A DNA stretch of 64,000 nucleotides from Escherichia coli (GTDB lineage Bacteria > Pseudomonadota > Gammaproteobacteria > Enterobacterales > Enterobacteriaceae), in NCBI RefSeq assembly GCF_044324875.1, contig NZ_CP172185.1; one strand, written 5' to 3'. Below, piece by piece: positions 2,773 to 63,156 of the stretch (position 1 is its first letter; every line of letters starts with the position of its first letter). The notes under the pieces were generated by a model. That model saw only the letters and a list, made by a program, of their open reading frames with translations. It made no database searches and had not been told where the DNA came from. Both the position numbers and the translations under genes were made by a program.

Positions 2773-5700
2773 GCAACGACATAACAAAAGAGATCAACCT
2801 GCAAAACGACATCATCGCGCAGATGGCAGAAAAAGGCTGGATTGTCGGCAAAGGTGACGGCTACGACCGGGAACGAGCACTATACGCACAGGATACCTTA
2901 AACTTCGTACAAACCACCCAACCGCAAGAGTGGGAAAAATTCGCCCGCGTTTACCCCAACGACACCGAGCGCCATTTCCTCGACGCACTGGTCGCGCAGC
3001 TTAAAAAAGCCGACAGCAACGCCACCGATATTCAGTCGCGCACCAGGGGTACGCTCGGCGTACTTCGCCACGGCCTGAAAATCCGCAATGCCCGTTTTTC
3101 GCTGTGCCAGTTTAAACCGGAACATAATCTCAACCCGGAAACGCTGGCGCGCTATCAGCAGAATATCTGCCGCATTGTGCCGGAACTGATCTACAGCCCT
3201 TATGCCTCAAATAGCGTCTTTGCAGAAACGGGCGTGAAAGCCAAAAAATGGCGCATCGACCTGGTGCTGTTTATCAACGGCCTGCCAATTGCCACGCTGG
3301 AGCTGAAATCCGAATTCAAACAGGCGGTGCAGAACGCCATTGCGCAGTATAAAAAAACCCGCCTGCCGAAAGATCCCGCTACCAATAAGCCCGAACCGCT
3401 GCTGACCTTCAAGCGCGGGGCGCTGGTGCATTTTGCCGTCAGCCAGTATGACGTTTATATGACCACCAAACTCGTGGGTGACAGCACCTTCTTCCTGCCG
3501 TTTAACAAAGGCACCAAAGATGGTGGTGCAGGCAATGAGATCCCCGAAGATACCCACCGCTACGCCACCGATTATCTGTGGAATGAAGTACTGCTGCCGG
3601 ACAACTTATTAAAAATCCTCGCCAGTTTTGTCCATTTGCAGATTGAAGAAAAAGAGGAGTGGAACGGGCTGAAAGCGAAGAAAGAGAGCCTGATTTTCCC
3701 GCGCTATCACCAGTGGGATGTAGTCAACAAACTGCTGGAGGCCGCGACGGTCGAAGGCACCGGCCATAAATACCTGATCCAGCACAGCGCAGGTTCCGGA
3801 AAGTCGAACTCCATTGCCTGGACCGCCCACCAGCTTTCTCGTCTGTACGACGCAAACGGGGAAAAACAGTTTCATTCTGTTATCGTGGTGACGGACCGCA
3901 CAGTGCTGGACGACCAGCTTCAGGACGCCATCTGGCAGTTCGAGCACGCCGACGGCGTGGTCGGGCGCATCAATAATAGAGAGGGCGATGGCTCTAAATC
4001 GGAAAAGCTCGCCAACGCGCTGGAAAACTCGCAACCGATTATTATTGTCACCATCCAGACGTTCCCGTTCGTATTGAAAGCTATCGAAAACAGTGTCAGC
4101 CTGAAGCAGCGTAAATATGCGGTGATTGCCGACGAAGCACACTCCTCGCAGAGCGGTTCTACCGCCCGTCAGCTTAAAGAAGTGCTGATGAGCGAAGAGA
4201 TGGATGATGACGTGGTACTGTCGTCAGAAGATATTCTGGATGCGACCATCGCTGCACGGAAAGGCAGCAGTAACCTGAACTACTACGCCTTTACCGCCAC
4301 GCCAAAATCCAAAACCCTGGAACTCTTTGGTCGCTGTCCGCGTCCCGATGAGCCGGCCTCAAAAACCAATAAACCTGAGGCCTTCCACGTCTACTCCATG
4401 CGCCAGGCAATCGAAGAAGGCTTTATCCTCGACGTGCTGAAAAACTACACCAACTACAAAGTGGCGTATCAGTTGCTGCAAAAGCTGGAAGACAAGGACC
4501 GCGAAGTCGACAGCAAAAAGGCAAAGATAAAGCTCAACCAATGGGTGACACTGCACGACCACAACATCTCGCAGAAGGTGAAGGTGATTGTGGAGCACTT
4601 CCGCAAACATGTGATGCACCTGCTTGGCGGCCAGGCTAAAGCGATGGTGGTCACCAGTTCACGCAAAGCCGCTGTGCGCTACAAGCTGGCGTTTGATAAA
4701 TACATTAGCGAGAACAATTACCAGAAAATCAGCGCGATGGTGGCATTTTCCGGGGAAGTTGAATTCCAGGAAGGCGACCATAACAGCCTGGCATTGTTAA
4801 AGCAGAAATTTACTGAAATAAACATGAACCCCGGCCTGAAAGGGCGGGATATGCGCAAAGCCTTCGACAGCGATGATTATCAGGTGATGTTGGTCGCCAA
4901 TAAATTCCAGACCGGTTTTGACCAGCCAAAGCTGTGCGCGATGTACGTGGATAAACCCCTCGGTGGCGTCGAGTGCGTGCAGACACTCTCCCGCCTGAAC
5001 CGCACCTATCCGGGCAAAGCGGAATCGGGCACTTTTGTCCTCGATTTTTATAATGATCCGGACGAGATCCTCGGCGCATTCCAGCCCTATTTCCAGACGG
5101 CGGAACTGACCGATGTCAGCGATCCGCAGCAGGTATTCGATCTGTTTGAAAAACTGCGCGCCACGCAGATTTTTCAGTGGCATGAAGTCGAGCAGTTCTG
5201 CGAGGCGTACTTCATCAAAAATAAATCGAATGCGGCGATCAGTAATATCTGTAAACCGGCGGTCGAACGCTGGAAAAAGCGTTATCTGATGGCAATAGAC
5301 GCCTATTTGACCGCCAAAGAGATGTTCGAGCGCACTAAAAAAACGGGCGATACGGTGTTAATCACCAATGCGGAAAACAGTTTTAAAGCCTGTAAGCAGG
5401 AGAAAGATCGTCTGGAGATTTTCAAGAAAGATCTCGGCAGCTTTGTTCGCTTTTATGAGTTTATGTCGCAAATCGTTGAGTACGATGACAAGGATCTGGA
5501 AAAGCTAAGCCTGTTTGCCCGTCATCTGCGTCCGCTGCTGCATGAGCAACGTCTGGAAGAGGATGAAATTGATCTCAGTAATGTGGAGATGAGTCACTAT
5601 CGTTTATCGAAAATCCATGAGCAAGATTTACGCTTACAGGAAGAAACGTCTGACTATACGCTGGATGCAAGTAATGATATTGGTACGGCAAAAGCGAAAG

Positions 5701-6032
5701 ATAAAAAAGAGGAGTTTTTATCGCAGGTGCTTTCTCGGATGAATGAATTATTCATTAGCGACCATTTGACCGACAAAGATATGATCAGCAATGCTTTTGC
5801 GGTGTATAACAAAATAACTGAAAATGAAAATGTTATGACACAAATTAAAAACAATCCGCCAGAACAAGCGATTCTTGGTGATTTCCTCCAGGCAGTTGAT
5901 AATGCTGTAATGGACAGTAATGACGCTCGGCAAGAATTTATGTTGCAATATTTATCCGATCCAGTTCGGGCAAAGGGCTTTGCTTATCTGATGTTTGATA
6001 TGCTCACGGGGAAAATTGCTTTGCCAACATAA
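2769..6032 (+). CDS. hsdR: Type I R-M restriction subunit (HsdR), nuclease + SF2 helicase
   Basis: 1087 aa; N-terminal PD-(D/E)xK-like nuclease region (ATLELKSE), Walker A SAGSGKSN, DEAH box VIADEAHSSQ; ATGA overlap with hsdS. Confidence 0.9.
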   Translation: MSNDITKEINLQNDIIAQMAEKGWIVGKGDGYDRERALYAQDTLNFVQTTQPQEWEKFARVYPNDTERHFLDALVAQLKKADSNATDIQSRTRGTLGVLRHGLKIRNARFSLCQFKPEHNLNPETLARYQQNICRIVPELIYSPYASNSVFAETGVKAKKWRIDLVLFINGLPIATLELKSEFKQAVQNAIAQYKKTRLPKDPATNKPEPLLTFKRGALVHFAVSQYDVYMTTKLVGDSTFFLPFNKGTKDGGAGNEIPEDTHRYATDYLWNEVLLPDNLLKILASFVHLQIEEKEEWNGLKAKKESLIFPRYHQWDVVNKLLEAATVEGTGHKYLIQHSAGSGKSNSIAWTAHQLSRLYDANGEKQFHSVIVVTDRTVLDDQLQDAIWQFEHADGVVGRINNREGDGSKSEKLANALENSQPIIIVTIQTFPFVLKAIENSVSLKQRKYAVIADEAHSSQSGSTARQLKEVLMSEEMDDDVVLSSEDILDATIAARKGSSNLNYYAFTATPKSKTLELFGRCPRPDEPASKTNKPEAFHVYSMRQAIEEGFILDVLKNYTNYKVAYQLLQKLEDKDREVDSKKAKIKLNQWVTLHDHNISQKVKVIVEHFRKHVMHLLGGQAKAMVVTSSRKAAVRYKLAFDKYISENNYQKISAMVAFSGEVEFQEGDHNSLALLKQKFTEINMNPGLKGRDMRKAFDSDDYQVMLVANKFQTGFDQPKLCAMYVDKPLGGVECVQTLSRLNRTYPGKAESGTFVLDFYNDPDEILGAFQPYFQTAELTDVSDPQQVFDLFEKLRATQIFQWHEVEQFCEAYFIKNKSNAAISNICKPAVERWKKRYLMAIDAYLTAKEMFERTKKTGDTVLITNAENSFKACKQEKDRLEIFKKDLGSFVRFYEFMSQIVEYDDKDLEKLSLFARHLRPLLHEQRLEEDEIDLSNVEMSHYRLSKIHEQDLRLQEETSDYTLDASNDIGTAKAKDKKEEFLSQVLSRMNELFISDHLTDKDMISNAFAVYNKITENENVMTQIKNNPPEQAILGDFLQAVDNAVMDSNDARQEFMLQYLSDPVRAKGFAYLMFDMLTGKIALPT

Positions 6033-6044
6033 AACACGTTGATA

Positions 6045-6070
6045 GCCGGGGTCGCACTTTCTACCCCGGC
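6045..6070 (+). terminator. GC-rich hairpin downstream of hsdR (gccggggt-N10-accccggc)
   Basis: 8-bp perfect inverted repeat 13 nt after the hsdR stop; no strong T-run, so intrinsic-terminator function is uncertain. Confidence 0.35.
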
Positions 6071-6096
6071 CATATTGTTTACAATAAGGAATAGCT

Positions 6097-6810
6097 ATGC
6101 TGAAGATGATTAAAGATTTTAAATTCAAAAAATACATTAAAAAATTACGTGAAGAAGGTTTGTTTTTTTATGTTTCTTTCGGTTTTATATTTACATTGTT
6201 AATGGAAGTTGATAATCAATTACCATACTATCTTCAACAAGACTTCTTCTTTTATACACTTATAGGATTTATGCCAATCAATATATTCTTTGTTTTGATT
6301 TGCACAAATGTATTTTTCAATGCCGCCCACACACTTATTTCACCTTATAAAGGTCAAAGAGTTGGTGAGAAATTTCTCTCTGAACTTGATAAAAGAACGC
6401 AACAAATTGGCTTTATTATTTCATTTATATGTTTTGGCATGACATTGTTTTGTGCTCTGGCGTGGTTGCTGTTTTTTGAGATGAATAATGAAAGTTACTA
6501 CGCAAAATATACATTAGATTTTTTGGCTGTTTTTATCATTATGATTATGTTTTCTTCAGCAGTTAATCCAGTCATGAGAAGAATATTCCAAAAAATGAAG
6601 GGATCGGACTCACATGGAAATTCAAAAATAATTCTTATAATTATAATCATTGTGTTATTGCTATTATTGCCAATTGCGTACATTATCAATAAAAATAAAA
6701 CAATTGAAATCAATATTAAGAAAGAAACTTATCAGCAAATAAAAGAAAAAACAAAGATGAAACCAGAAGATTATATCAAAAAATTGATTGCTGATATTAA
6801 ATTCAACTAA
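6097..6810 (+). CDS. Hypothetical polytopic membrane protein, AT-rich (likely horizontally acquired)
   Basis: 237 aa ORF with AAGGA RBS 7-11 nt upstream of ATG; several long hydrophobic segments; lysine-rich termini; much lower GC than flanking genes. Confidence 0.55.
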   Translation: MLKMIKDFKFKKYIKKLREEGLFFYVSFGFIFTLLMEVDNQLPYYLQQDFFFYTLIGFMPINIFFVLICTNVFFNAAHTLISPYKGQRVGEKFLSELDKRTQQIGFIISFICFGMTLFCALAWLLFFEMNNESYYAKYTLDFLAVFIIMIMFSSAVNPVMRRIFQKMKGSDSHGNSKIILIIIIIVLLLLLPIAYIINKNKTIEINIKKETYQQIKEKTKMKPEDYIKKLIADIKFN

Positions 6811-6814
6811 TATC

Positions 6815-6848
6815 TATATGTACCCTGGTTTCTTCCTGGGTACATATA
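6815..6848. terminator. Hairpin between convergent genes (tatatgtaccc-N12-gggtacatata)
   Basis: 11-bp inverted repeat lying between the 3' ends of the membrane-protein ORF (+) and yjiS (-); possible bidirectional terminator. Confidence 0.35.
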
Positions 6849-6886
6849 AAAAGTTAATATCCTGATTTATTCTCAACATCCCCCCA

Positions 6887-7051
6887 TCACTCCACATCCT
6901 CCCTGCGTAACCCAATATCCCTCAACCGCTCATCACTCATCTGCTGTAACACCCGCCGGGCCTGCATTTGCCGCCGCCAACGCCTCACTGCCTGCCAGAG
7001 TTGCACAAGTCCAATAAACGGTGCTTTAGCTTTGTTTTCATGAAATTCCAT
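6887..7051 (-). CDS. yjiS: DUF1127 small protein (54 aa), not in supplied ORF track (<60 aa)
   Basis: Minus-strand translation MEFHENKAKAPFIGLVQLWQAVRRWRRQMQARRVLQQMSDERLRDIGLRREDVE; contains the DUF1127 hallmark LxxMSDxxLxDIGLxRxD; divergent from yjiR as in K-12. Confidence 0.7.
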   Translation of the reverse strand: MEFHENKAKAPFIGLVQLWQAVRRWRRQMQARRVLQQMSDERLRDIGLRREDVE

Positions 7052-50511: not shown

Positions 50512-50579
50512 TACACGCTATTCCTTGTGCAATCAGGCCAACTCGCAATAAAGGCAGCAACTATGCTTGAAGCCCCTTC

Positions 50580-51255
50580 CCCGCCGGATAAATAATATCC
50601 TTACGGCAATTGGTAACCGTATAAAAGGCCTGATGTTTTGAACTGCCGTTGACGGAGATGAAGTAATCTGCTTTTTTGGCAGCATCCAATAACGCATCAA
50701 TGGCAACGCGATCATTGTTGAGCTCAATTCATAGCGCCGGATACAATTTCAATAAGGCGTCTTTACCACGTTGCGTGGCATTTTTGTAATACTGTAAAAC
50801 ACCCGCTTTTTCCCGCGGAGATTCCGATACAACGGAGACGTTACGCTTGCTGGTATGGTTTCTGTCGGGAGGGTACTACCGATATCCTTACAAGCGTAGA
50901 GCTGTTCCATCATGCGTGCCAACAACAACATACGGATATCCAACCGTTCCCAGCGACGTAGGAACATCTCGCGAATGTTAATCCAGTACTGTAGTCGGCG
51001 ATCGCTATCACCAGATTCACAATCATAAAGAACCTCTGCAATATCAATAGTATACTTGAGAATTTGTTTCGATTCATTTTTCGTGCACAACATTTCGATA
51101 GCTTCGAGGGCATCATGGTATTCTTTGTGACTGAAGGTCCATGAAAGTAACGTATCGAGAATAATCCCTGTAGTTGCCAAAATGAGTTGATAACTACACA
51201 ATGATTTGTTTGTACAGAAGGAACGATTATTATATGGTCTTGTAGGGCAGAGCAC
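50580..51255 (-). pseudogene. Degraded gene of unknown function (at least two frameshifts)
   Basis: Minus-strand coding signal continues in three different frames: 51255..50749 (168 aa), ~50790..50745 (RGKDALLKLYPAL) and 50735..50580 (ELNNDRVAIDALLDAAKKADYFISVNGSSKHQAFYTVTNCRKDIIYPAGKGLQA). Confidence 0.4.
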
Positions 51256-51372
51256 GTTGCTACCGTAACAGCGTTGAAGATAATTTGGTCGAGACTGTAG
51301 TGGACCAGTTTAAAATGTAGCAGAATTTTAAAAGTGTCAGGTGCATAGAATTAAAAAAATGGAACTATAAAA

Positions 51373-53106
51373 ATGGAAATCATGTTACCAAAAAACACCT
51401 TATATGATAGAGAGCAAAATATCTTTTTTGAAAAGGTTACGGCCTTAATTGGAGAAAATGGTGCTGGTAAATCCTCGATTTTACAATCCGTATTTATTAA
51501 CTGTTTAACAAAAAAATATCTACCAGAAACAAAGGTTGTTTGTTTTTCTTCTGGACAAAATGAGAAATACTCAACGTACTTCTCTGATTATCTTTCTCAT
51601 GAAAGGCAAGCAAATAGAGGTCTTAGCTTAGATTGTTGTTATTACGATAAATCATGGTCAAAGTTACTAATATTCATATCCACAATTTGTAAATCAAATG
51701 GTCTTGTTAGAAATTTTTTATGTGAGAAAGGCTATATTGATGTATCAGATGATAAAAATGATGATATATCAAGCAAGCTTACATTGACGGTCCGAGTAAA
51801 TTCGGCTTACGTTAATCGAGTAAAAATGGCATTAGCACAAGAAGAACAAGGTATTGAAAATACTTTAAGGTATTCAGCTTATCATAGGACTTTAGAAAGT
51901 TTCATTAATAATATTGTTAATGCTGATTATGATTTCGAGTCTCCACTTGAAGCTCAAGAGATCTTGCTAACTCATTCAAATTTTTTCAATCCATCATTTG
52001 AGGAAGGAGAAGATTCCTTTTTTGATCCTATCATAACATTTTTCACTCAAGCAGCAGATAATGATTACTTTATAATAAAACCATCATTACAGCTAGAGTT
52101 TAAAAATAATATCGAACTGAATGATATTAGTGATGGGGAATATCAAGTACTCTTTTTATACTCTTTGCTTGATATTTTTGATAGTCCTAATACTTTATTC
52201 TTATTAGATGAGATAGATTCCCATTTACATTACAAGAATATTGAGCTCTTATGGCATCGACTACATAGTATTAATGGTTATGCGATAACAACCACCCATC
52301 TATTAGACTCAATTACAGCTACTGATAATGATTTTAAAAACTTAAAGATTGTTGATAAAGGAAAAATAAAAGAAGATGATAAAATAAAAACTATAATAGA
52401 ACGTTTATCTGTCTTGACAAGAATATCAGACGTACAGTTCGAAGTGTGTCGTAAACTAGAAAACATTGTATTGATGGATGATTATAATGATTGGACTATT
52501 TTTTATGCCTTAGCAAAGAAAAAAGGACTTGATGTATCAAAGTTAGATGGCCTCCATGCAATAAAACAGTCCTCTGGTTACGATAATTTAAATCAAGAGT
52601 TCGCAAAACCAAAAATAGAGTGGATTAATTCGCTTTTAAATGTAAATACTGATAAAAAAGTCAAAAAAATATTCATGATCTGCGACAAAGATGAGGCTCC
52701 AATTACCTATCAGAAAGATGGAGTTCAAGTCAATGGAAGTGAATGTTCAAAACATATAGCGAAGTTAGAAAATAAAAACAAAAATAAAATATATCTCCTT
52801 GTCTGGAAAAGAAGAGAAATAAAAAACTACTTATTATCTTATACGGCATTGTCTCATCATGGATTTATCGGGCAAATAAACAATGGTGATCTGCCGGCTA
52901 ACAGTTATTTAAAAGAAAACGATCCTGGAGATAATTCAGCAATTAGCCGGCTTAACGTAAAACATTGCATCACAAAAATAATTGATTCTGATGGTATAGG
53001 ATTAGATATATCAAAACTTTACTCATATATAGAACTTATACCACCTGCTGAGATCAGTGAAGATATAGTGAATATGTACAATTTTTTGGTGGAGAAATTA
53101 AAATGA
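51373..53106 (+). CDS. ABC-type (SMC/RecF/OLD-like) ATPase with C-terminal Toprim/DUF4435-like putative nuclease domain
   Basis: 577 aa; Walker A GENGAGKSS, signature-like SDGEYQ, Walker B LFLLDEIDSHLH, H-loop TTTH; C-terminal acidic motifs (VLMDDYND, ICDKDE, KRREIKNYLL) resembling OLD/DUF4435 Toprim; very AT-rich; stop overlaps start of next gene (ATGA). Confidence 0.75.
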   Translation: MEIMLPKNTLYDREQNIFFEKVTALIGENGAGKSSILQSVFINCLTKKYLPETKVVCFSSGQNEKYSTYFSDYLSHERQANRGLSLDCCYYDKSWSKLLIFISTICKSNGLVRNFLCEKGYIDVSDDKNDDISSKLTLTVRVNSAYVNRVKMALAQEEQGIENTLRYSAYHRTLESFINNIVNADYDFESPLEAQEILLTHSNFFNPSFEEGEDSFFDPIITFFTQAADNDYFIIKPSLQLEFKNNIELNDISDGEYQVLFLYSLLDIFDSPNTLFLLDEIDSHLHYKNIELLWHRLHSINGYAITTTHLLDSITATDNDFKNLKIVDKGKIKEDDKIKTIIERLSVLTRISDVQFEVCRKLENIVLMDDYNDWTIFYALAKKKGLDVSKLDGLHAIKQSSGYDNLNQEFAKPKIEWINSLLNVNTDKKVKKIFMICDKDEAPITYQKDGVQVNGSECSKHIAKLENKNKNKIYLLVWKRREIKNYLLSYTALSHHGFIGQINNGDLPANSYLKENDPGDNSAISRLNVKHCITKIIDSDGIGLDISKLYSYIELIPPAEISEDIVNMYNFLVEKLK

Positions 53107-55004
53107 ACACCTCTTTATTTGAAGATCTACTTACACTAATCAAGAAAAAGAGTTCGATAAGAAATACAGAACAAGCAGTAGAGCTAATTTCATTATTTAT
53201 TTTTTTACATTATATAAAATTATATTTTTATGAAAATGATAAAAGATTCTCAGATATAAAAAACATATCAAGCAACAACATTAATGAAATTAAATATTAT
53301 TACCAGCAACTATATGAAAGCTTTATTTTATCGATAGATATAAAAAATATAAACCACGACATGCTTGAAAATCTCAGGAGCAAGATAGGTTTTTTAATTA
53401 ATAACATCAATAACCATGAAATAATCAAATATATAGATTATTCTCTTTCGCATATACATTCACTTACAGAGTTCTATCAATATGCAAATTCTTATCAATC
53501 TTTAATTCTTAGGATGGTTAATGAATCGGGTCGTTCAGGGGAATATGTTACTCCATCTGCTTTAGTTCAGCTCATGGTTGAAATGTTATCACCTACAGAT
53601 GGCACATCAATCTACGACCCAGCATGTGGAACTGGGGGTTTATTAATAGAGTCAGCACGATATATTAAAGGCAACAGTTTAAACAAAAACTTTAATTATT
53701 CCCTTATTGGTAATGACACATCATCATTTGCCTGTCTAATCTCAATTGTTAACCTTTTAATCAATAAAGAATTTAACTTTGAAATAATACTAAAAGATAG
53801 CTTAGATATAAATTATAAGAATAAAAAATATGACTTTGTTTTAACTAACCCACCATTTGGGAAAAAGAGCGGTTGGGATAATATTCATATTGACACACAT
53901 TATAAAGGACCTAATCTAGACTATTACTTCCTGGAGCATGTTATTGACTCTCTCGCTGTTAATGGCAAAGCAGCCATAATATTACCAGAGCGTTTTTTAT
54001 ATGATGTGAGTAAAGAGTGCATCACTCTTAAAGATAAGATCTTCCAAAATTATAATTTAGATTGTATTTTATCTATACCGTCAGGTGCATTGCTTCCTTA
54101 CACTGCAGTAAAATTATGTATTCTTTTTATAAGTAATTCTGGCCCAACAGATAGAATATTTTTCTACAATTTAAATAATGGTAAAAAATACTCACGTACA
54201 AATACTATAAAATTCGATGATTTTATAGATTTTTTAGAGTCAGCAAAAAATAGAACAATAACTGAACACTCCTGGATTATCAATATTAGTGATACACCTT
54301 CATCTTATAACTTACTCTTAAAAGATAAAGAGCGAAACTCATATGAGTTTCTTAGTGATTCTATAGTTAACATTGAACAGACAATACGTAATAATGAATT
54401 GTTACTAACCGAGTTGTCTTTATTAAGAGAAAAAATAGAGATCTTAGAGTCAACAATAAAAAATCATTCGCATGAATATGAATTTGAGAGACTTAAAGTT
54501 GGAAATATTGCATTAGTAAAATCCGGAAATTTATTACAAAAAAATAGACTATTATCCACTGGGCCAATTCCTGTATATGGTGGGAATGGAGTTATTGGAT
54601 ATAATTATGAGGCAATGGAAAATGGTGAAAATATTATTATTGGTAAGGTCGGAGCTCTTTGCGGAAACGTTCGGTATGTTCAAGGTGATATTTGGGTGAC
54701 AAATAACTCATTAATTATTAAGAATTATTTACCAAATAAAGTTTTAACACCCTACCTTGCAAAGTTATTATCTACTTTAAACTTAAGAAAGCTCGCCGTT
54801 GGTACCGCTCAACAATATTTAACCACAACACAAATAAAAAATGTAGAAATTAACATTCCACCTTTAACGACCCAGCATAAATTAAATATGTGGCTTGATG
54901 AGTTAGATAATACCCTTGAACAATATAATAAGCTCATTGAAAAAATAATGAATGATAAGCGAGAACTTAAAGAGAATTTGTATAAAGGTCTTTTAATAGA
55001 ATAG
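53103..55004 (+). CDS. Fused N6-adenine DNA methyltransferase + single target-recognition domain (HsdM-HsdS-like fusion)
   Basis: 633 aa; GEYVTP and YDPACGTGGLL (SAM binding), NPPFG (catalytic motif IV); C-terminal 170 aa has the HsdS TRD signature PVYGGNGVIGY...GKVGALCGNVRYV plus a conserved coiled helix; very AT-rich. Confidence 0.8.
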   Translation: MNTSLFEDLLTLIKKKSSIRNTEQAVELISLFIFLHYIKLYFYENDKRFSDIKNISSNNINEIKYYYQQLYESFILSIDIKNINHDMLENLRSKIGFLINNINNHEIIKYIDYSLSHIHSLTEFYQYANSYQSLILRMVNESGRSGEYVTPSALVQLMVEMLSPTDGTSIYDPACGTGGLLIESARYIKGNSLNKNFNYSLIGNDTSSFACLISIVNLLINKEFNFEIILKDSLDINYKNKKYDFVLTNPPFGKKSGWDNIHIDTHYKGPNLDYYFLEHVIDSLAVNGKAAIILPERFLYDVSKECITLKDKIFQNYNLDCILSIPSGALLPYTAVKLCILFISNSGPTDRIFFYNLNNGKKYSRTNTIKFDDFIDFLESAKNRTITEHSWIINISDTPSSYNLLLKDKERNSYEFLSDSIVNIEQTIRNNELLLTELSLLREKIEILESTIKNHSHEYEFERLKVGNIALVKSGNLLQKNRLLSTGPIPVYGGNGVIGYNYEAMENGENIIIGKVGALCGNVRYVQGDIWVTNNSLIIKNYLPNKVLTPYLAKLLSTLNLRKLAVGTAQQYLTTTQIKNVEINIPPLTTQHKLNMWLDELDNTLEQYNKLIEKIMNDKRELKENLYKGLLIE

Positions 55005-55012
55005 ATCACAAT

Positions 55013-55039
55013 AGCAGGGTGTCCATAAAACACCCTGCT
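55013..55039. terminator. Hairpin between convergent genes (agcagggtg-N9-caccctgct)
   Basis: 9-bp inverted repeat in the 80-bp gap between the MTase-fusion stop and the hsdR stop. Confidence 0.45.
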
Positions 55040-55084
55040 ACTGGTTGCAAGTAAGTTGCAATATCTGTACTGCTGAAGCTACTA

Positions 55085-58000
55085 TTAATAATGCTCCTCA
55101 ATATACCCATACGCCTTCTGGAACAACTCTTTATCTTTCCCTAGTCCAAACTGGGCCAAGGTCAGTAAAAGCGCCTTTTGGATTTCGCGCGGGCCACTGT
55201 TGGAATTTTGCCAGCCATCAAAGCGGGTAGCTTTCACAATTTTATCAATTTGCTCTACAACATCACCGATTAACTTAGGGGTAGTTTCCGGACGTGTTTC
55301 GAGGAAAAGCTTAGTCAACGCCTGTTTATTATCAGCTTCAGTTACTGGGCGCTCGCCCGTTTCGCGCTCGGCTTGAACGGTATCTTTCGCTGCATCCAAC
55401 AGGCCTTTCAACCAGTCAATGGCCTTGATAACACCAGCTTCATAGTCCTGACGCAGTTTTTCAAGGCGCTCGCCCAATGCCACAAATTTAGGATCATGAC
55501 TGCCGCGCAAACGTCCCATAAGATCAATCTCCAGGCGTTTGGCACGTTGTTCCTGCTCTTTAGCGGTCAGGGTAAAAATAGCGTGCTCGTCCATAACCAA
55601 CTCGTCAATATCATCGCGAATACGATTGATATCAGTATGCTCATGGATCATCTTGATTGTTTCGGGGCCAAGGGCAGCCCAAACAAGCGCACCTGTCTGC
55701 CCTACCGGACGCACCGATTCATAAATTTGCGCCAGCCATTTATAGTCCTGACGATAAGAGGTCAAAAAAGGATCTGGGTTGATAGCTGACCATAACTTGG
55801 ATAACACACCAAAGCTGGCAGCGAATTCATCGCGTTTCTCGTTGGTCGGCAGGCATTCCTGCGCGGCCATAATACCTTCAAAACCAGCTATGGACCGATC
55901 CACACCAGGGAAGAAGGACAAACATTTATTCAGTTGTAACGGCAATAGCTCTTTAAATGCCTCAATTCCCTCTACAACTCCTTCAATTTCTTCAGGGTTA
56001 TAGGCCAGAGCGGTACGCAGATTTTCGAAAACGCCGAGGTAGTCGATAATTAATCCCATGTCCTTGCGTACAGTATCGGTTTCGTACAACCGGTTGGTTC
56101 GGCACATGGCCTGAAGAAGAGTATGATCGCGTAGAGGCTTATCGAGGTACATGCAGTAGCAAATCGGGGCATCAAAGCCCGTAAGCAGCTTGGCGGTTAC
56201 GATAATAAGCTGTAATGGATGTTCAGGATCTTTAAAGCATTCAATCAGATCCTTTTGCACCTGTTCTTCGGCATCAATGTGCTGCCAGCGTTCAAAATCG
56301 ACTTGTTTGACTGGCAGCTCCAACTCATCATGCCATTTAAGCCAATCCTTGTTGAGCTTGTCTTTTTTGCCACCCTCTTCAACTTTAACCGGAGCCTGGT
56401 CAACGTTCATAACCACTTCAACCGCATCAAAACCAAGCTTTTCACCGAGCAAATAATACATCTGCACACAGGCTTCGCGATCGTATACCACAACCATGCC
56501 TTTCATCTTTTTCGGCATAACATGGTTGGTAAAATGCTCAGCAATATCATTACTCACCGCAGCCATACGCCTAGGGGATTTCAGCATGATTGCCAGCTTG
56601 CCTGCACGCCTGGACAATGCTGCTTTTTCTTCTTCATCCAGGTTGTTTTCGGTAGCCAGTTGCTCGAACTCTTCATTGATGGCATCACGATCCACTCGGA
56701 GTTCAGCCAGCCGAGGTTCGAACTTCACCGGGTTAGTTGCGCCATCCCGGATCGACTGCTTATAGCTATAGCGGCTCATATAGCGACCCGGATCTTCTTC
56801 GGCACCGAACAATTTGAACGTATTACGATCAATGCCAGAAATCGGAGTACCTGTCAGGCCATAGAAGTGGGCATTGGGCAACGCCCAGCGCATTTTCTCG
56901 CCTAATCCCCCTTCCTGTGTACGGTGAGCTTCGTCAACCAACACAATGATATTGTCACGGTTGTTCAGGCCATTAGGGTTGCTATCGTCAATTTCGATAT
57001 CTTTAAATTTAAAGATGGTGGTGATTAAAATGCCACGGCTGTCTTGTTCAATGTATTCACCCAGCTTTTTGCAGCTTTGCACTTTAATCAGATTCTTAAC
57101 GTCGGCTCCACCAAAGGTCTCGTTAATTTGGCTGTCCAGATCTCGCCGGTCCACAACGATAAGTACCGTCGGGTTTTTTAACGCATTATCGGCACGTAGC
57201 ATTTTGGCGGCGTAAAGCATCAACAAGGATTTACCCGATCCCTGGAAATGCCAAATAAGACCTTTTTTTGGATAGCCTCTGCGAACACGCTCAACGATTT
57301 GTTTTGCTGCTTCAAATTGCGGATAACGCGGCAAGATTTTAACGCGTTTAGGTGGAGTATTTTTGCCCGTTTTGACGGTTGAAAATAATGCGAAAGATTC
57401 CAGTAACTGCAATAAGGTTTGCGGATTTAACAAACTCTCACAGCTATTGAGTACCGATGCTAATCCCGGCAGAATCTCATCACGAAGCTCAGTATTATGC
57501 CAGGGTCCCCAGTCTTTAACTCGGGCATTAATGGCACCATAGGCAAAGGTTTTTCCTTCGCTGGCAAAGCACAGCAAGTTAGGTACAAAGAAAGATTCAA
57601 CATTTTTCCAGTAGTACTTTTTGCCACCCATGAAATCGGCAGCACCGTCTTGCCAGGTCACGCTGGGGCGTGTTGCGGTTTTAACTTCGCCCACTACTAG
57701 CGGTATGCCGTTCACATAAAGAACAATATCAAAATAGACTTCAGTGGCCGCGATATAGCGAACCTGCTGCGCCACCACAAAGTGGTTGTTCTCTATATTG
57801 TCAAAATCAATCAGATTGATGGTGATATGGTCGCCATTCTTACCAAAAGGCAAGGTTTTGTCGGCCATCAACCATTCCTGGAAGTTTTCATTGGCCTTTA
57901 CCAAGCCGGTATGGCGGGCTTCTAAAACCACTCCTCGCAGTTTGTAAATGACCTCATCGGCATAGTCAGGCTGTCTGCCGATATCAGGGTTTAACGAACA

Positions 58001-58147
58001 AAGCGCGTCTTTTAGCCACTCATCAACGAAGATATCCTGCGCTTGTTTAGGCAGGTTTTCACCGTGGCAGTAAGTCCACTTGACTCCGCTTAAACCTTTT
58101 AAACGGTCGATAATTCCATTTTCTGTGACGGTTTGTTCGTTAAACAT
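55085..58147 (-). CDS. hsdR: Type I R-M restriction subunit (HsdR)
   Basis: 1020 aa; nuclease motif GEVKTA, Walker A QGSGKSLLM, DEAH box VDEAHRTQ. Confidence 0.9.
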   Translation of the reverse strand: MFNEQTVTENGIIDRLKGLSGVKWTYCHGENLPKQAQDIFVDEWLKDALCSLNPDIGRQPDYADEVIYKLRGVVLEARHTGLVKANENFQEWLMADKTLPFGKNGDHITINLIDFDNIENNHFVVAQQVRYIAATEVYFDIVLYVNGIPLVVGEVKTATRPSVTWQDGAADFMGGKKYYWKNVESFFVPNLLCFASEGKTFAYGAINARVKDWGPWHNTELRDEILPGLASVLNSCESLLNPQTLLQLLESFALFSTVKTGKNTPPKRVKILPRYPQFEAAKQIVERVRRGYPKKGLIWHFQGSGKSLLMLYAAKMLRADNALKNPTVLIVVDRRDLDSQINETFGGADVKNLIKVQSCKKLGEYIEQDSRGILITTIFKFKDIEIDDSNPNGLNNRDNIIVLVDEAHRTQEGGLGEKMRWALPNAHFYGLTGTPISGIDRNTFKLFGAEEDPGRYMSRYSYKQSIRDGATNPVKFEPRLAELRVDRDAINEEFEQLATENNLDEEEKAALSRRAGKLAIMLKSPRRMAAVSNDIAEHFTNHVMPKKMKGMVVVYDREACVQMYYLLGEKLGFDAVEVVMNVDQAPVKVEEGGKKDKLNKDWLKWHDELELPVKQVDFERWQHIDAEEQVQKDLIECFKDPEHPLQLIIVTAKLLTGFDAPICYCMYLDKPLRDHTLLQAMCRTNRLYETDTVRKDMGLIIDYLGVFENLRTALAYNPEEIEGVVEGIEAFKELLPLQLNKCLSFFPGVDRSIAGFEGIMAAQECLPTNEKRDEFAASFGVLSKLWSAINPDPFLTSYRQDYKWLAQIYESVRPVGQTGALVWAALGPETIKMIHEHTDINRIRDDIDELVMDEHAIFTLTAKEQEQRAKRLEIDLMGRLRGSHDPKFVALGERLEKLRQDYEAGVIKAIDWLKGLLDAAKDTVQAERETGERPVTEADNKQALTKLFLETRPETTPKLIGDVVEQIDKIVKATRFDGWQNSNSGPREIQKALLLTLAQFGLGKDKELFQKAYGYIEEHY

Positions 58148-58151
58148 ATAG

Positions 58152-59306
58152 TCAAACTCCTAGAAGCTCATATATTAATGCTTGTCTAAGATTAAAATAA
58201 TGTTCTTTTTTATCTCTCAGCACCTTCAATATTTTCTCGAGCGATTCCAATTTTTTTACTAAAATATCTGAGTCAGTAAATAATTTATTATGAATGAAGA
58301 TATCATCAAAAACTCTTACTGTTACTCTTTGCCTACCTGAAGTGCCTTCCATGTGATGAAGAGCATAATGCCTAAATTTCTTTGTTTTGATTATGTAATA
58401 ACCAAGTTTCTTTAGAAAATGATCTTCAAATTTTGATCTCATCACTATAAACTCAGTGGATCCCACAGCTATACTCTCTTCTGCAAGAAAATCAACAAAT
58501 GCTGCCTTACCATTTTCAAAACAAGGTGTGATTCTAGCCAAAAGGATATCATCTTTTCTAAATTTCATACCAGAAGATTTTCCTGACTTAGTTTCTCCTT
58601 TATAGTCTATATATGGAAGTTCAACATCTAAAGATGCCATATCAACATATGGTATTATTTCATCCACTGACCCAATCTTTGGATTAATTAAAAAAGAATC
58701 ACTTAATGAACTCCAGTCATTCTTTTTCCCAGCTGATGTTGTCGCCAGATAAATACCTACTTCAGCATCTATAACATCCTGATATAACTTTCTTACCGAT
58801 AATATAGTTTCATTAAGATGCATATAGCATTCATGGAATTTGTCAAGAATAACTAAGGCACTATTTTGTTTTTCTCTATCGAGAATATTAAATTTAAAGC
58901 TTACAACATCCTTCCATCTAATATGCTTATTAGTTGAACCAATAGTATTTTTTAACGTATGCTCAGCAAAACTTTCAGATTGAAAGATATATGGAAGCAA
59001 TCGACTTTCAAAACCATGATATTGCTTTGGCGTACATACAATAACCTTCTCACCACAATATCCTTCTCTATCAGCTATCGCGACTTTTCTTAACTGCGGA
59101 TTTCTAGTTAGATAAAGTATGTCTCCTGGGCTAAATTTCTTCCCAAAAGTTGGCCCCATATCATCAGGGGCGATTCCGTAGCGAGAGAAAAATATTTCAC
59201 AATTATCAAAGTCTTCTCCTCTTACACAATATTTAACATTAGGATCTAAATTATTCTTCTCCCATATGTTTTTTTCTTTTACTAAGTCAGAAAGAGTAAT
59301 CTTCAT
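58152..59306 (-). CDS. hsdS: Type I R-M specificity subunit (HsdS)
   Basis: 384 aa; TRD motif RITPCFENGKAAFV and TSGRQRV; AT-rich; start overlaps stop of upstream hsdM paralogue (ATGA). Confidence 0.85.
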   Translation of the reverse strand: MKITLSDLVKEKNIWEKNNLDPNVKYCVRGEDFDNCEIFFSRYGIAPDDMGPTFGKKFSPGDILYLTRNPQLRKVAIADREGYCGEKVIVCTPKQYHGFESRLLPYIFQSESFAEHTLKNTIGSTNKHIRWKDVVSFKFNILDREKQNSALVILDKFHECYMHLNETILSVRKLYQDVIDAEVGIYLATTSAGKKNDWSSLSDSFLINPKIGSVDEIIPYVDMASLDVELPYIDYKGETKSGKSSGMKFRKDDILLARITPCFENGKAAFVDFLAEESIAVGSTEFIVMRSKFEDHFLKKLGYYIIKTKKFRHYALHHMEGTSGRQRVTVRVFDDIFIHNKLFTDSDILVKKLESLEKILKVLRDKKEHYFNLRQALIYELLGV

Positions 59307-60766
59307 ATCTTTCCTCCATTAAAAAAGTAAGAAGAGTTCATATTCAATTCTTTTCTAAACGATTGCCATTTACTTATCTCCCTTGAGAGATTTAAATCTT
59401 TAAATTCTTTTTCTATATACACAGGAACATTTAGATTAAAATCGTTATCTTCGACTTCCTCGATAGAGGCTATATACGTAGTAATATTAGAGACATCCTT
59501 CAAACTAATGTAAGAGTTATAGATATTCATTATATTAATATCATTTAAATAAGCATGATTCCTAGTGGTAATAAGTTCATCATAGGCATTTATAAATAAT
59601 ATTTTCCCTTTTAGCTCAGTTCGTTTATTGCAATTCAACAAAATAATACATGCCGGCATAGGTGAATTATAAAACAATCCAGGGCCAAGACTAATTACAC
59701 ATTCAATAATATCTGTTTGAATAATTTTTTCTCTGAGCTGTTTCTCACTTTCTCTGAAGAGAACTCCATTTGGCCAGAGCATAGCTGCGCGACCAGTATC
59801 AGGCTTCAGGCTTTTAATTATATGGGTATAAAACGCATAATCAGCACAGCCCTGCGGTGGTACACCATAAAGATTACGACCATACGGATCAGCGGCAAAC
59901 TTGTCACGATTCCATTTCTTAATGGAGTACGGTGGGTTAGCAAAAATCACATCAAACTGCTTGAGCCGATCGTTTTCAATAAACTTTGGTTCAGCCAGAG
60001 TATCACCGCGCAGCACATCAAATTCTTCAATATCGTGCAGGAACATATTCATACGAGCAATAGCGGAAGTCAGCAGGTTCACTTCCTGGCCATAAAGGTG
60101 CACAGAGCGCCACTCTTCTCCTCTTGCACGAAGATCCATCACTGCATTTAGCAACATCCCTCCAGTGCCACACGTTGGATCATAGGCTGTTTCACCCGGT
60201 TTTAAGCCCATAATGCGCGTCATTAAATGCACGACTGTTCGGTTGGTGTAGAACTCTGCTGCCGTATGACCGGAATCATCAGCGAACTTTTTAATCAGGT
60301 ATTCGTAGGCTTCACCAAGATCATCCTGGGCGACAGATTTAATGCCGAGCGGAATTTTACTGAAATGTTCAATCAGATCAGCCAGCAGATGATCGGGAAG
60401 GCGCTCTTTATTGGTCCACTGTGCATCACCGAAGACGCCATGTAAACGCGGGTTATTGGCTTCAATTAGTCGAAGCGCATTCTGGATCGCTTCACCAATG
60501 TTTTTACTGGTATTGCGTACCTTTTCCCAACTGGCTTCAGAGGGAATATTGAAACGGTGAAACATCGGCATGGCGGCATATTCAGCATCACCTTCATGGA
60601 GTTCCAGCGCTTCGTTATATTCTTCCAGATAGACATCTGACAGGCGTTTGTAAAACAGCAACGGGAAGATATACTGCTTGTAGTCTGATGCGTCAATTTG
60701 GCCACGAAGAAATTCGGCGGCTCCCCAGAGCAGCTCTTCCAGCTTTTTATTACTCATAGTACTCAT
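59303..60766 (-). CDS. hsdM: Type I R-M methyltransferase subunit, paralogue 2 (divergent HsdM)
   Basis: 487 aa; YDPTCGTGGML, NPPYS; EFYTNR replaces the usual EFYTPR; 3' third is AT-rich; ATGA overlap with paralogue 1 stop. Confidence 0.85.
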   Translation of the reverse strand: MSTMSNKKLEELLWGAAEFLRGQIDASDYKQYIFPLLFYKRLSDVYLEEYNEALELHEGDAEYAAMPMFHRFNIPSEASWEKVRNTSKNIGEAIQNALRLIEANNPRLHGVFGDAQWTNKERLPDHLLADLIEHFSKIPLGIKSVAQDDLGEAYEYLIKKFADDSGHTAAEFYTNRTVVHLMTRIMGLKPGETAYDPTCGTGGMLLNAVMDLRARGEEWRSVHLYGQEVNLLTSAIARMNMFLHDIEEFDVLRGDTLAEPKFIENDRLKQFDVIFANPPYSIKKWNRDKFAADPYGRNLYGVPPQGCADYAFYTHIIKSLKPDTGRAAMLWPNGVLFRESEKQLREKIIQTDIIECVISLGPGLFYNSPMPACIILLNCNKRTELKGKILFINAYDELITTRNHAYLNDINIMNIYNSYISLKDVSNITTYIASIEEVEDNDFNLNVPVYIEKEFKDLNLSREISKWQSFRKELNMNSSYFFNGGKI

Positions 60767-62262
60767 ACCTCGAACCCTTCTTTGATAAGCAGGGCCTCCA
60801 GCTCCTCTTCTGCTTTTTCCAGCTCAGCCAGCTTCCGTTGAAAATCTTTGAGCGCTTCTTCCACAGTAATGGTTTCTTCTTCGAGTGGCTTTTGCACATA
60901 ACGAGCAATATTTAGATTGAAGTCATTTTCTTCAATCTCCTTCAGAGGAACCCAGCGTGCAACGCCTTCGATTTCTTTTGCATCTGGCCCTTGTTGCGCC
61001 TGGTCATGATAGATTTGGTATATTTCATCGGCCTGCTTGTTGGACAGCGTATTCTGCGCACGCCCCTTGGTATAGATTTCTTCAGCATTGATGATCAATA
61101 CATGATCTTTATGCGCTGCCGGACGTGATTTACGCAACACCAAAATACACGCAGGAATCCCAGTCCCATAGAACAGGTTGGAAGCAACACCAATAATCGC
61201 CACAATGCGATTCTCTTGCAGTAATTTGGTTCGAATTGCCCCCTCTGCGCCGCCACGAAACAGCACACCATGAGGTAATACGACAGCCATACGTCCATTG
61301 TCGTTAAGTGAAGCAAACATATGCTGCACCCAGGCAAAATCACCATTTGTTTTAGGCGCCAGGCCATATCGCTTACGGCCATAGGGATCGTTCGACCACA
61401 GATCGTATCCCCATTCTTTCAAGCTAAACGGTGGGTTGGCAACAACGCAGTCAAAGGTTTCTAAACGATCGCTTTTTAAAAATTTAGGTTCGCGTAACGT
61501 ATCCCCTCGGACAATATCGAAATCTTCCTGTCCATGCAGGAACAGATTCATACGCGCAATAGCTTCCGTCGTTAAGTTCTTTTCCTGACCCTTGATTTTT
61601 AGTAAACGCGGATCACCACCATTTTCTTTTACATGGTGGATGGTCTCAAGCAGCATACCACCGGTACCACAGGCGGGATCGTAGACACTCTCACCGGCTT
61701 TTGGATCAAGAATGTTAACCATCAAACGAACGATAGTTCGTGGGGTATAGAACTCACCGGCTTTCTTATTGGCTTTGTCTGCAAAGCGTTTGATCAGATA
61801 CTCGTATGCGCGCCCCATATCATCGTCACGGACACTAGAAACGCCAAGGTTCACCTTATTGAAGTGATTGAGTAACGTAGCCAGTAACTCATCAGAAAGG
61901 CGTTCTTTATTGGTCCAGCTGGCATCGCCAAAAATGCCATGCAGTTTAGGGTTTGCCAGTTCTATACCACGGAAGGACTCTTTTAAAGCCTGACCGATGT
62001 CCTTGGTCTCAGCGAAAACATCGCGCCAGTGGCAATTTTCAGGTATCTGAATACGGTGAAACATCTTGCCCTTGGCAAGCTCTGCATCCCCAATGCTCTC
62101 CATCGCATCGGCAAATTCTTCGTCATACACGTCACAAATGCGCTTGAAGAACAGGATGGGGAAAATGTACGTTTTGTAATCTGACGCATCAATGGGCCCT
62201 GTAATAATATGGGCTGCATGCCATAGATGGGCCTCGAGATCTTTTAGGTTAATCAGTGTCAT
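60763..62262 (-). CDS. hsdM: Type I R-M methyltransferase subunit, paralogue 1 (canonical HsdM)
   Basis: Track ORF 60763..62364; start moved to MTLINLKDLEAHLW (AAGAGA RBS upstream), 499 aa; EFYTPR, YDPACGTGGML, NPPFS. Confidence 0.85.
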   Translation of the reverse strand: MTLINLKDLEAHLWHAAHIITGPIDASDYKTYIFPILFFKRICDVYDEEFADAMESIGDAELAKGKMFHRIQIPENCHWRDVFAETKDIGQALKESFRGIELANPKLHGIFGDASWTNKERLSDELLATLLNHFNKVNLGVSSVRDDDMGRAYEYLIKRFADKANKKAGEFYTPRTIVRLMVNILDPKAGESVYDPACGTGGMLLETIHHVKENGGDPRLLKIKGQEKNLTTEAIARMNLFLHGQEDFDIVRGDTLREPKFLKSDRLETFDCVVANPPFSLKEWGYDLWSNDPYGRKRYGLAPKTNGDFAWVQHMFASLNDNGRMAVVLPHGVLFRGGAEGAIRTKLLQENRIVAIIGVASNLFYGTGIPACILVLRKSRPAAHKDHVLIINAEEIYTKGRAQNTLSNKQADEIYQIYHDQAQQGPDAKEIEGVARWVPLKEIEENDFNLNIARYVQKPLEEETITVEEALKDFQRKLAELEKAEEELEALLIKEGFEV

Positions 62263-62505
62263 TGTTGTCTCTTTTCGATCCTGCAGTGCTTGAACTCTCA
62301 GCAACTCATGGATTTCACAGTAAAAAAGCAAGTAAAGCGATTCCACAACCACCTGAGCGTTCAATATGTATGACGCCTTTACCCAAGTTGCTTAAATCAA
62401 GGAAATTGCCTGAGATAATACTCTGGCATCAGAATGATACCAAGTTGAAGGGCTGATTTCCGCATCAATACCTTGTGGTAATAGGGGATTACTCTTTTAC
62501 CCTTA

Positions 62506-63156
62506 TTGGCGCAAAATGGCGGCATTTCCTCATTTCTCCTTCGGAGCATCTTACGCGCTATAACCACTCTCGTTTTTTCCTATTCCCATGCAGATGAAGC
62601 ACTACGCAATGAACTTGAGAAGCATCTCTCCCCGCTGAAGCGAACCGGGAAGATCACAACATGGCACGATCGCCGCATCGTTCCTGGTCAGGAGTTCGAA
62701 CGTCAGATCGACCACTATTTTTCGCAAGCAGATATCATCCTGATCCTGATCAGCAGTGACTTTATTGCTTCTGATTACTGCTATCAGGTAGAGATGAAAA
62801 ACGCACTGGAACGGCATGACCGGGGCGAGGCGGTGGTCATTCCGGTAATTTTAAGAAACTGTGCATGGCATCAGTTAGAATTCGGCAGCATTATGGCGGC
62901 GACTATCGACGGTAAACCCATCACTAAGTTTGCCACCCACGATGAAGGCTACGTTCAGGTCGTCGAGGCTGTCTCGCGTGCCATTGCCCGGATGGAAGCC
63001 AAAAAACCACAGCAAACCATACATATCCCTTCACCGGCTCCGGCGAATCCGATCTTTCAGGGAGTAGATTCCGTTTTTACACCGTGTTCAAGCAACCTTA
63101 TTCTATCTGTTATAGCCAGGATAATGTTGTTCGAAACAGTATTAACGAAACTCTAA
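62506..63156 (+). CDS. TIR-domain protein (possibly disrupted: non-ATG start, 3' frameshift)
   Basis: TIR core LVFSYSHADEALRNELEKHL...ADIILILISSDFIASDYCYQVEMKNALE...VVIPVIL; only an in-frame TTG is available as start (stop at 62482..62484); reading frame changes near 63090..63150 and continues to 63311. Confidence 0.65.
   Translation: MAQNGGISSFLLRSILRAITTLVFSYSHADEALRNELEKHLSPLKRTGKITTWHDRRIVPGQEFERQIDHYFSQADIILILISSDFIASDYCYQVEMKNALERHDRGEAVVIPVILRNCAWHQLEFGSIMAATIDGKPITKFATHDEGYVQVVEAVSRAIARMEAKKPQQTIHIPSPAPANPIFQGVDSVFTPCSSNLILSVIARIMLFETVLTKL

Follow-up and report, generated by a model that had tools for sequence, protein, structure and literature searches.

A gene pair encoding an ABC ATPase–Toprim-like protein and an HsdM–HsdS fusion at a Type I restriction locus of Escherichia coli: a candidate restriction guardian

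The DNA analyzed here, referred to as the window, is a stretch of 64,000 nucleotides (nt) of an Escherichia coli chromosome (contig NZ_CP172185.1, assembly GCF_044324875.1). It contains two coupled genes, the first encoding an ATP-binding cassette (ABC) ATPase of 577 amino acid residues (aa) with a Toprim-like C-terminal domain, and the second encoding a 633-aa fusion of HsdM with one half of HsdS (M.S). The two genes were found to belong to a family that accompanies Type I restriction–modification (R-M) genes in many bacteria. The target recognition domain (TRD) of the fusion is frozen, and in a sub-clade the methylase motif NPPF is lost while the nuclease partner is intact; this combination speaks against a restriction enzyme gated by methylation and in favor of a guardian of the PrrC/PARIS/Ronin type. 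On balance, and with somewhat more confidence than doubt, we favor reading the pair as a restriction guardian of two components, in which the ATPase–Toprim protein would be the abortive effector and M.S a sensor or decoy.

Both open reading frames (ORFs) lie exactly where the original prediction had placed them, and all the motifs that it quoted are present in their translations. Its further description of a translationally coupled, AT-rich pair was also borne out: the stop codon of the first gene and the start codon of the second overlap in a 4-bp ATGA, with a GGAG about 10 nt upstream, and the GC content across the pair is 0.29–0.33 (51–55 kb) versus about 0.5 in most of the window. Since ORFs of 577 and 633 codons in DNA of 30% GC have full-length homologues (25–98% identity, in many phyla), they are not chance ORFs. 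Of 5426 complete E. coli genomes, 102 carry the pair, both genes together every time, and the co-conservation of the two genes is genuine.

The N-terminal part of the 577-aa protein was matched in Pfam by AAA_21/AAA_15/SMC_N (residues 1–300). As in the ATPases of the OLD family, the Walker A, signature, Walker B and H-loop motifs are all present, and residues K33, D279, E280, H284 and H309 are invariant across 55 diverse homologues. The PADLOC matches (AriA at 3e-15, mad3, AbiLi, PtuA and GajA) were partial and covered the ATPase part only. Searches of Pfam, PADLOC, PHROGs and PDB sequences found nothing for residues 350–577, even when a 35-sequence profile was used. With Pfam, no match was obtained at E ≤ 10 for the query, and one of the 35 members matched RloB at 5.6e-3; the domain does not match the Toprim sequence profiles Toprim_Old, DUF4435 and RloB, and so does not score as an OLD-family Toprim by profile, and hhalign against P2 Old alone found nothing. 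A comparison with 1.84 billion representatives returned 120 clusters only, and the full-length matches were almost all proteins of 565–750 aa with the domain at their C-terminus.

The AlphaFold2 model of the whole protein (pLDDT 92.5) had its best structural matches in GajA, PtuA, the retron Eco8 OLD protein and AriA. The modeled C-terminal domain was most similar to the Toprim nucleases of retron Ec67, AriB and OLD, and the top Foldseek match in the PDB was the C-terminal region of OLD (probability 0.94, E 1.6e-2), with moderate scores that Rossmann-like folds, e.g., the Piwi MID domain, also reach. According to the strand order of the predicted model, D369 (D or E across the family) and the invariant D373 come after strand 1 (residues 364–368), and the invariant D438-x-D440 comes after strand 3 (432–437), which is the arrangement of acidic residues in the OLD family; R480, E482, Y486 and K530 are conserved as well. 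The acidic motifs VLMDDYND, ICDKDE and REIKNYLL are found in this C-terminal region; an oddity is that the family-wide REIENY reads REIKNY in the clade of the window. Because the conserved residues occupy Toprim-site positions, we read this region, despite the moderate scores, as a divergent OLD/AriB-type Toprim nuclease domain, a model-based assignment that agrees with the ABC ATPase plus Toprim-like nuclease first proposed.

The 633-aa protein consists of an N6-adenine methyltransferase (MTase), a long helix, one Methylase_S TRD and a terminal helix. Pfam gave N6_Mtase (6e-43, residues 131–397) and a single Methylase_S (1.8e-15, residues 460–615), and PADLOC gave MTase_I (1.6e-62) and Specificity_I (3.6e-26), so that the description as an HsdM fused to one HsdS-type TRD stands. 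The homologues are fusions of 620–655 aa, and they are always located downstream of the ATPase gene.

A locus scan with one genome per species yielded 60 loci, which were annotated with custom-built hidden Markov models (HMMs); contexts were looked up in E. coli, Salmonella, Acinetobacter, Vibrio, Snodgrassella and an Acidiferrobacterales metagenome-assembled genome (MAG). In 57 of the 60 species-level loci, a gene of the Type I MTase family starts −65 to +6 nt from the ATPase–Toprim stop codon, hsdR lies directly upstream of the ATPase–Toprim gene in 49, and the ATPase–Toprim gene stands alone in none. The linkage spans Proteobacteria, Bacteroidota, Desulfovibrio and a Firmicute MAG. Adjacency to Type I genes is not incidental to the pair but is the rule for the whole ATPase–Toprim family.

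Two layouts were distinguished. In layout A (42 loci), the order is hsdR (about 770 aa), ATPase–Toprim gene, hsdM and hsdS, the second gene being embedded in the operon as prrC is; the HsdR of this layout keeps its own PD-(D/E)xK motif. Layout B, found in the window and at 12 further distinct loci, consists of a complete Type I system with the ATPase–Toprim gene and then the M.S fusion after it. Six genes (M-M-S-R-ATPase-M.S) are collinear in Vibrio, the pair is inverted in E. coli and Salmonella, and McrBC is located between the Type I system and the pair in Acinetobacter; the neighboring HsdR families vary by host (T1R_D3-like versus EcoEI_R_C). In an uncultured Psychrobacter (locus L057, 8945–12704), the pair lies between ylqF and mutY with a degenerate motif IV and with about 9 kb on each flank free of Type I genes, and because this copy stands alone the pair appears to be self-sufficient. 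When the MTase domain of M.S was compared with the HsdM of layout A, the HMM E-value was about 1e-75 and the best PADLOC model was the same (PDLC03021), whereas the matches to the neighboring HsdM were weaker (1e-30 to 1e-40). Given that M.S is nearer to the HsdM of layout A than to that of its neighbor, layout B looks like layout A after the loss of hsdR and the fusion of M with half of S.

Some loci deserve separate mention. Four loci from Desulfovibrio and Bacteroidota (L046, L052, L059 and L061) have an hsdM joined to one non-conserved TRD in a fusion (683–716 aa) after the ATPase–Toprim gene, mostly with hsdR upstream, and are possible intermediates between the two layouts. In Leclercia adecarboxylata (L072, 6577–13466), hsdR, the ATPase–Toprim gene and hsdM are frameshifted into fragments and hsdS is one ORF; this is a decaying copy. 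A conserved 672-aa protein, often near the RhuM and MobI genes of a mobilizable island, is encoded after hsdS in L002 (12512–14530) and in 13 other layout-A loci. It gave no Pfam, PADLOC or NCBIfam match and may be a further component.

The two DISCRIMINATING results concern the behavior of the TRD, which is frozen, and catalysis, in that NPPF is lost in a sub-clade. The TRD is the best-conserved part of M.S (mean pairwise identity of 52%; the MTase domain reaches 44% and the N-terminus 27%). It is orthologous everywhere and is not exchanged between loci; its identity follows or surpasses that of the MTase domain and amounts to 95% where the ATPases are >80% identical. In layout A, by contrast, HsdM averages 80% identity and HsdS 30%, and in loci with ATPases >80% identical the values are 92% for HsdM and only 35% for HsdS, a variability that is, to judge from these identities, normal Type I specificity shuffling. 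The exchange and diversification typical of Type I TRDs were thus not seen in M.S, and because its TRD is orthologous and best conserved, as opposed to the hypervariable HsdS of layout A, M.S does not appear to be a normal specificity subunit. The catalytic motif of these methylases is (D/N/S)PP(Y/F). NPPFG was kept in 50 of 50 layout-A HsdM proteins, whereas seven M.S orthologues (L010, L057, L063, L064, L067, L070 and P0171) have SG(I/V)PFG in its place, and one further orthologue has HPPFF at motif IV. Judged by the motif, these variants should be inactive as methylases. Motif I and the TRD are retained in them, as are Walker A/B and the Toprim acidic residues in their partners, which suggests that methylation is dispensable. 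In the E. coli/Salmonella/Vibrio crassostreae clade, to which the window belongs, the S-adenosylmethionine (SAM)-binding and NPPF motifs are intact, and there M.S is possibly still a methylase.

The analysis shows the domain make-up of the pair, its translational coupling, the Type I linkage, a frozen TRD and a lost catalytic motif; for the guardian, we infer the contact between the proteins, the trigger and the target as follows. Two M.S chains would dimerize through the helices on either side of the TRD and thereby resemble the M2S1 core of a Type I enzyme; the resulting (M.S)2 core would bind and silence the ATPase–Toprim protein. An anti-restriction protein of a phage or plasmid (the DNA mimics Ocr and ArdA, or peptides such as Stp) would bind the M.S core, whereupon the ATPase–Toprim protein would be released, or switched on by its own ATPase. 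Once active, it would degrade an essential nucleic acid, either tRNA (as do AriB, P2 Old and PrrC) or DNA (as does GajA), and the growth of the infected cell would be halted. In the commoner layout (hsdR-ATPase-hsdM-hsdS), which would be ancestral, the guardian would watch its own working Type I enzyme, like PrrC; in the layout of the window, hsdR would have been lost, M and S fused, and the module placed beside an unrelated complete Type I system, presumably the first-line system that the pair accompanies. Of the two alternatives in the original prediction, the analysis favors the second, a PARIS-like guard working with an MTase. PrrC and PARIS are known to act as guardians of R-M systems (PMC12707154; PMC11464382), AriB and P2 Old are tRNases (PMC11464382, 10.64898/2026.07.10.737580), and P2 Old is abortive (10.64898/2026.07.10.737580).

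More broadly, and more tentatively, since we place it somewhat below an even chance, the pair may belong to a family of anti-anti-restriction guardians that is widespread and has no name as yet. There, a Type I core (here a single M.S chain with a frozen TRD, sometimes catalytically dead) would bait the anti-restriction proteins of phages and cage an OLD-like ATPase–Toprim nuclease, and the loci would form a series from a guardian within a working Type I operon, through M-S fusion and hsdR loss, to the loss of methylase activity, thereby joining the principles of PrrC, PARIS and Ronin.

Other explanations were weighed against the guardian. The ATPase–Toprim protein might be an autonomous, single-protein OLD-like defense, comparable to P2 Old or HEC-04, that hitch-hikes at Type I loci next to an M.S gene that is an unrelated orphan or degenerating methylase. 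Fused ABC ATPase–Toprim proteins can defend alone (HEC-04, 10.1101/2024.01.29.577857; P2 Old), unrelated defense genes are often embedded in Type I operons (TgvAB, PMC11411939; Payne et al.), and the loss of NPPF in some M.S genes could be mere decay. We nevertheless consider this explanation unlikely: the MTase gene follows at −65 to +6 nt in 57 of the 60 loci and no solitary ATPase–Toprim gene was met in the scan, M and S were retained upon hsdR loss as a full-length fusion with a highly conserved TRD, and even the stand-alone Psychrobacter locus retains both genes.

It is less probable still that the pair is a new R-M system, in which (M.S)2 would methylate a symmetric bipartite site and direct the ATPase–Toprim protein, instead of HsdR, to cut unmethylated DNA. 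An MTase, a TRD and an ATP-dependent nuclease do have the formal composition of an R-M system, the motifs of M.S are intact in the clade of the window, Toprim domains of the GajA type cut DNA, and the MADS system combines methylation-based discrimination with ABC and Toprim components (10.1101/2023.03.30.534895; 10.64898/2026.07.10.737580). However, a degenerate motif IV next to an intact nuclease partner would be self-lethal if the nuclease were gated by methylation, the TRD never diversifies as layout-A HsdS does, and the commoner layout already has an HsdR with its own nuclease motif. The first alternative in the original prediction, an OLD-like nuclease restrained by sequence-specific methylation, is likewise not supported, given the frozen TRD and the sub-clade that lost NPPF while the nuclease motifs of its partners persisted. 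Hardly credible is the proposal that M.S supplies a second specificity to the neighboring Type I enzyme through its HsdR, with the ATPase as an accessory: the constant adjacency to a complete Type I system would fit, but the neighboring HsdRs come from different families, the MTase of M.S is of another lineage than the neighboring HsdM, McrBC intervenes in Acinetobacter, the Psychrobacter pair has no Type I system nearby, and motif IV is dead in a sub-clade.

The guardian reading was also set against known systems. PrrC (from EcoprrI, a Type IC R-M system) likewise joins an ABC-type NTPase to a C-terminal nuclease and is encoded within a Type I hsd operon, so that layout A embodies the same idea, and the logic of silencing by the R-M enzyme and release upon its inhibition is borrowed from PrrC. 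The embedding seen for PrrC/RloC was found in 42 of the 60 loci, but the pair of the window lies beside rather than inside the operon, its partner is an R-less M.S fusion instead of a working R-M enzyme, and the PrrC/RloC nuclease is a HEPN anticodon nuclease (Rx4-6H), with no such domain but a Toprim-like one here. In PARIS, AriA (ABC ATPase) and AriB (DUF4435 Toprim nuclease) are separate proteins with no methylase partner and no obligate Type I linkage, whereas a single fused protein is found here; its AriA match covers residues 200–297 only, and the AriB, AriAB and DUF4435 profiles gave no match to its C-terminal domain. Ronin (RonA, HsdM and HsdS, from ECOR55) resembles the pair in being a Type I derivative without hsdR whose M and S serve as anti-restriction sensor or decoy with dispensable methylase catalysis, and it too adjoins other R-M/BREX systems. 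The R-less HsdMS of Ronin is a decoy joined to a toxin, and an NPPF mutant still works (10.1101/2023.04.06.535777). Ronin differs in that its effector is a 61-aa membrane protein, its HsdM and HsdS are separate and its S has two TRDs; here, M and S are fused, there is no small ronA-like gene, and the linked gene is that of the 577-aa protein.

P2 Old, GajA (Gabija), HEC-04 and the retron Eco8 effector are, like the 577-aa protein, single polypeptides with an N-terminal ABC ATPase and a C-terminal Toprim domain, but they belong to other sequence families, act alone or with a helicase or retron, and have no M.S partner. MADS of Pseudomonas aeruginosa also has N6-adenine MTase, ABC ATPase and Toprim components (10.64898/2026.07.10.737580), and weak matches to mad2 (3e-29) and mad3 (3e-13) were obtained; it comprises eight genes, of which mad6–8 are mandatory (10.1101/2023.03.30.534895). 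The pair itself is not a Type I R-M system, given its one TRD and the lack of hsdR in its operon, the neighboring hsdR having its own M and S. It is not a Type IIG or Type ISP enzyme either, because M.S has no nuclease domain and the best IIG profile match spans the TRD only.

Several candidate assignments were rejected along the way. Membership in MADS was discarded given that mad6, mad7 and mad8 are absent from the two-gene pair and that NCBIfam MAD2 scored 60 bits against a cut-off of 720, and TIGR04435 ("restriction system-associated AAA ATPase") scored 34 bits against a cut-off of 300. A HEPN/PrrC-type nuclease was dismissed since the sole Rx4H string, RLNVKH, has a His that is not conserved (P, E, K, S or D in homologues) and the predicted fold is Toprim-like. 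The idea of a split HsdR, in which a 771-aa layout-A HsdR without a nuclease would receive one from the Toprim domain, failed because this HsdR aligns from residue 3 with the V. vulnificus HsdR 3h1t and keeps D...EAK. A specificity shared with the neighboring Type I system was excluded by the M.S TRD, which is unrelated to the adjacent HsdS, and an origin of the pair from a mobile element was not retained, with four plasmid matches and no phage match.

As regards novelty, the claim of an undescribed system holds in part. In PADLOC-DB 2.0 and NCBIfam, both proteins stay below every family cut-off, and the family is absent as such from these collections and from Pfam. A literature search found no paper describing the pair, with Krishnan et al. 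2020, the likeliest place for a prior in-silico mention, outside that search. The claim that nothing comparable had been described was too strong in view of PrrC, Ronin, MADS and the OLD-type ABC ATPase and Toprim modules that are attached to R-M-like systems as a suicidal back-up (PMC12839542; Payne et al.). The general theme, a suicidal back-up linked to restriction, is already published, while the form found here is not catalogued; the part that would be new to a specialist is the series of frozen TRD and dead methylase.

The coordinates of the features are collected in Table 1. The window covers the classical hsd locus, followed by the yji, uxu and fim genes and then nanCMS; the pair is the start of a defense island immediately past nanS. 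In the conserved leader, sigma-70-like hexamers were noted at 51257–51284 and 51289–51316 (consensus matches only), and an Rfam scan of the leader gave no match and no RNA element. The leader is the end of an 861-bp stretch without annotated genes (50512–51372), whose distribution among E. coli genomes coincides exactly with that of the pair (102 genomes) and of which only the final ~190 bp are conserved with Salmonella; it contains an unannotated 168-codon ORF (50749–51255, minus strand). The hairpin between the pair and the neighboring hsdR is probably a bidirectional terminator, as read from the nucleotides, and a terminator-like site is found on the minus strand at 55051–55034.

Table 1. 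Features of the gene pair and its immediate surroundings (window positions).
Feature	Position	Strand	Basis or detail
ABC ATPase–Toprim fusion gene (putative effector)	51373..53106	+	ORF, 577 aa, ATG start; translation; full-length homologues
OLD-type ABC ATPase domain, residues 1–335	51373..52377	+	Walker A GENGAGKSS; signature LSDGEYQ; Walker B/D-loop LFLLDEIDSHLH; H309
Divergent Toprim-like nuclease domain and helical tail, residues 350–577	52420..53103	+	
HsdM–HsdS (M.S) fusion gene (putative sensor/decoy)	53103..55004	+	ORF, 633 aa, ATG start; translation
N6-adenine MTase domain, residues 126–400	53478..54302	+	Motif I YDPACGTGGLL/DPACGTGG; motif IV NPPFG intact
Single TRD, residues 459–598	54477..54896	+	Methylase_S; flanking long helices 401–458 and 599–633
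Conserved 5' leader/promoter region of the pair	51185..51372	+	~190 bp before the ATPase start, common to E. coli and Salmonella loci
Hairpin AGCAGGGTG-n9-CACCCTGCT separating M.S from the convergent hsdR	55013..55039	.	Read from the sequence
Complete convergent Type I R-M operon	55085..62364	-	hsdM1 60763–62364; hsdM2 59303–60766; hsdS 58152–59306; hsdR 55085–58147

The adjacent Type I operon, whose convergent orientation had been noted originally, starts 80 bp downstream of the pair on the opposite strand. It contains two tandem hsdM paralogues that are 46% identical (59303–62364, minus strand), and its hsdS differs among E. coli strains whose pair is identical. Between E. coli and Vibrio, the M1-M2-S-R cassette (M1 87%, R 86% and S 24% identity) is far better conserved than the ATPase (45–59%) and the M.S fusion (35–40%). 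A gene for a TIR-domain protein (62506–63156, plus strand), which has no NCBIfam family, is divergent from hsdM1, and the Salmonella locus encodes a longer version (327 aa). A third Type I system, the classical hsd locus (ICR), is located at 17–6032 on the plus strand (3' part of hsdM, hsdS at 1483–2772 and hsdR at 2769–6032); TRD2 of its HsdS is 34% identical to the M.S TRD (HMM E 4e-33). Other AT-rich patches (GC 0.33–0.38) lie at 6001–7000, 15001–18000 and 30001–31000; the alignment to strain CB7453 identifies them as a hypothetical gene adjacent to hsdR, the gene of a pentapeptide-repeat protein, and yjiC.

If the guardian reading is right, many Type I operons (EcoEI/V. vulnificus-like) in Proteobacteria and Bacteroidota would come with an abortive back-up of their own, and a stripped-down guardian with its own bait would be present in about 2% of E. 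coli. The pair would be a second independent case of bacterial decoy immunity after Ronin, with natural intermediates that show the passage from restriction enzyme to sensor, and it would add a Toprim nuclease family missed by the current domain and defense-system libraries. Such a guardian would be directly testable in E. coli with the known triggers Ocr, ArdA and Stp.

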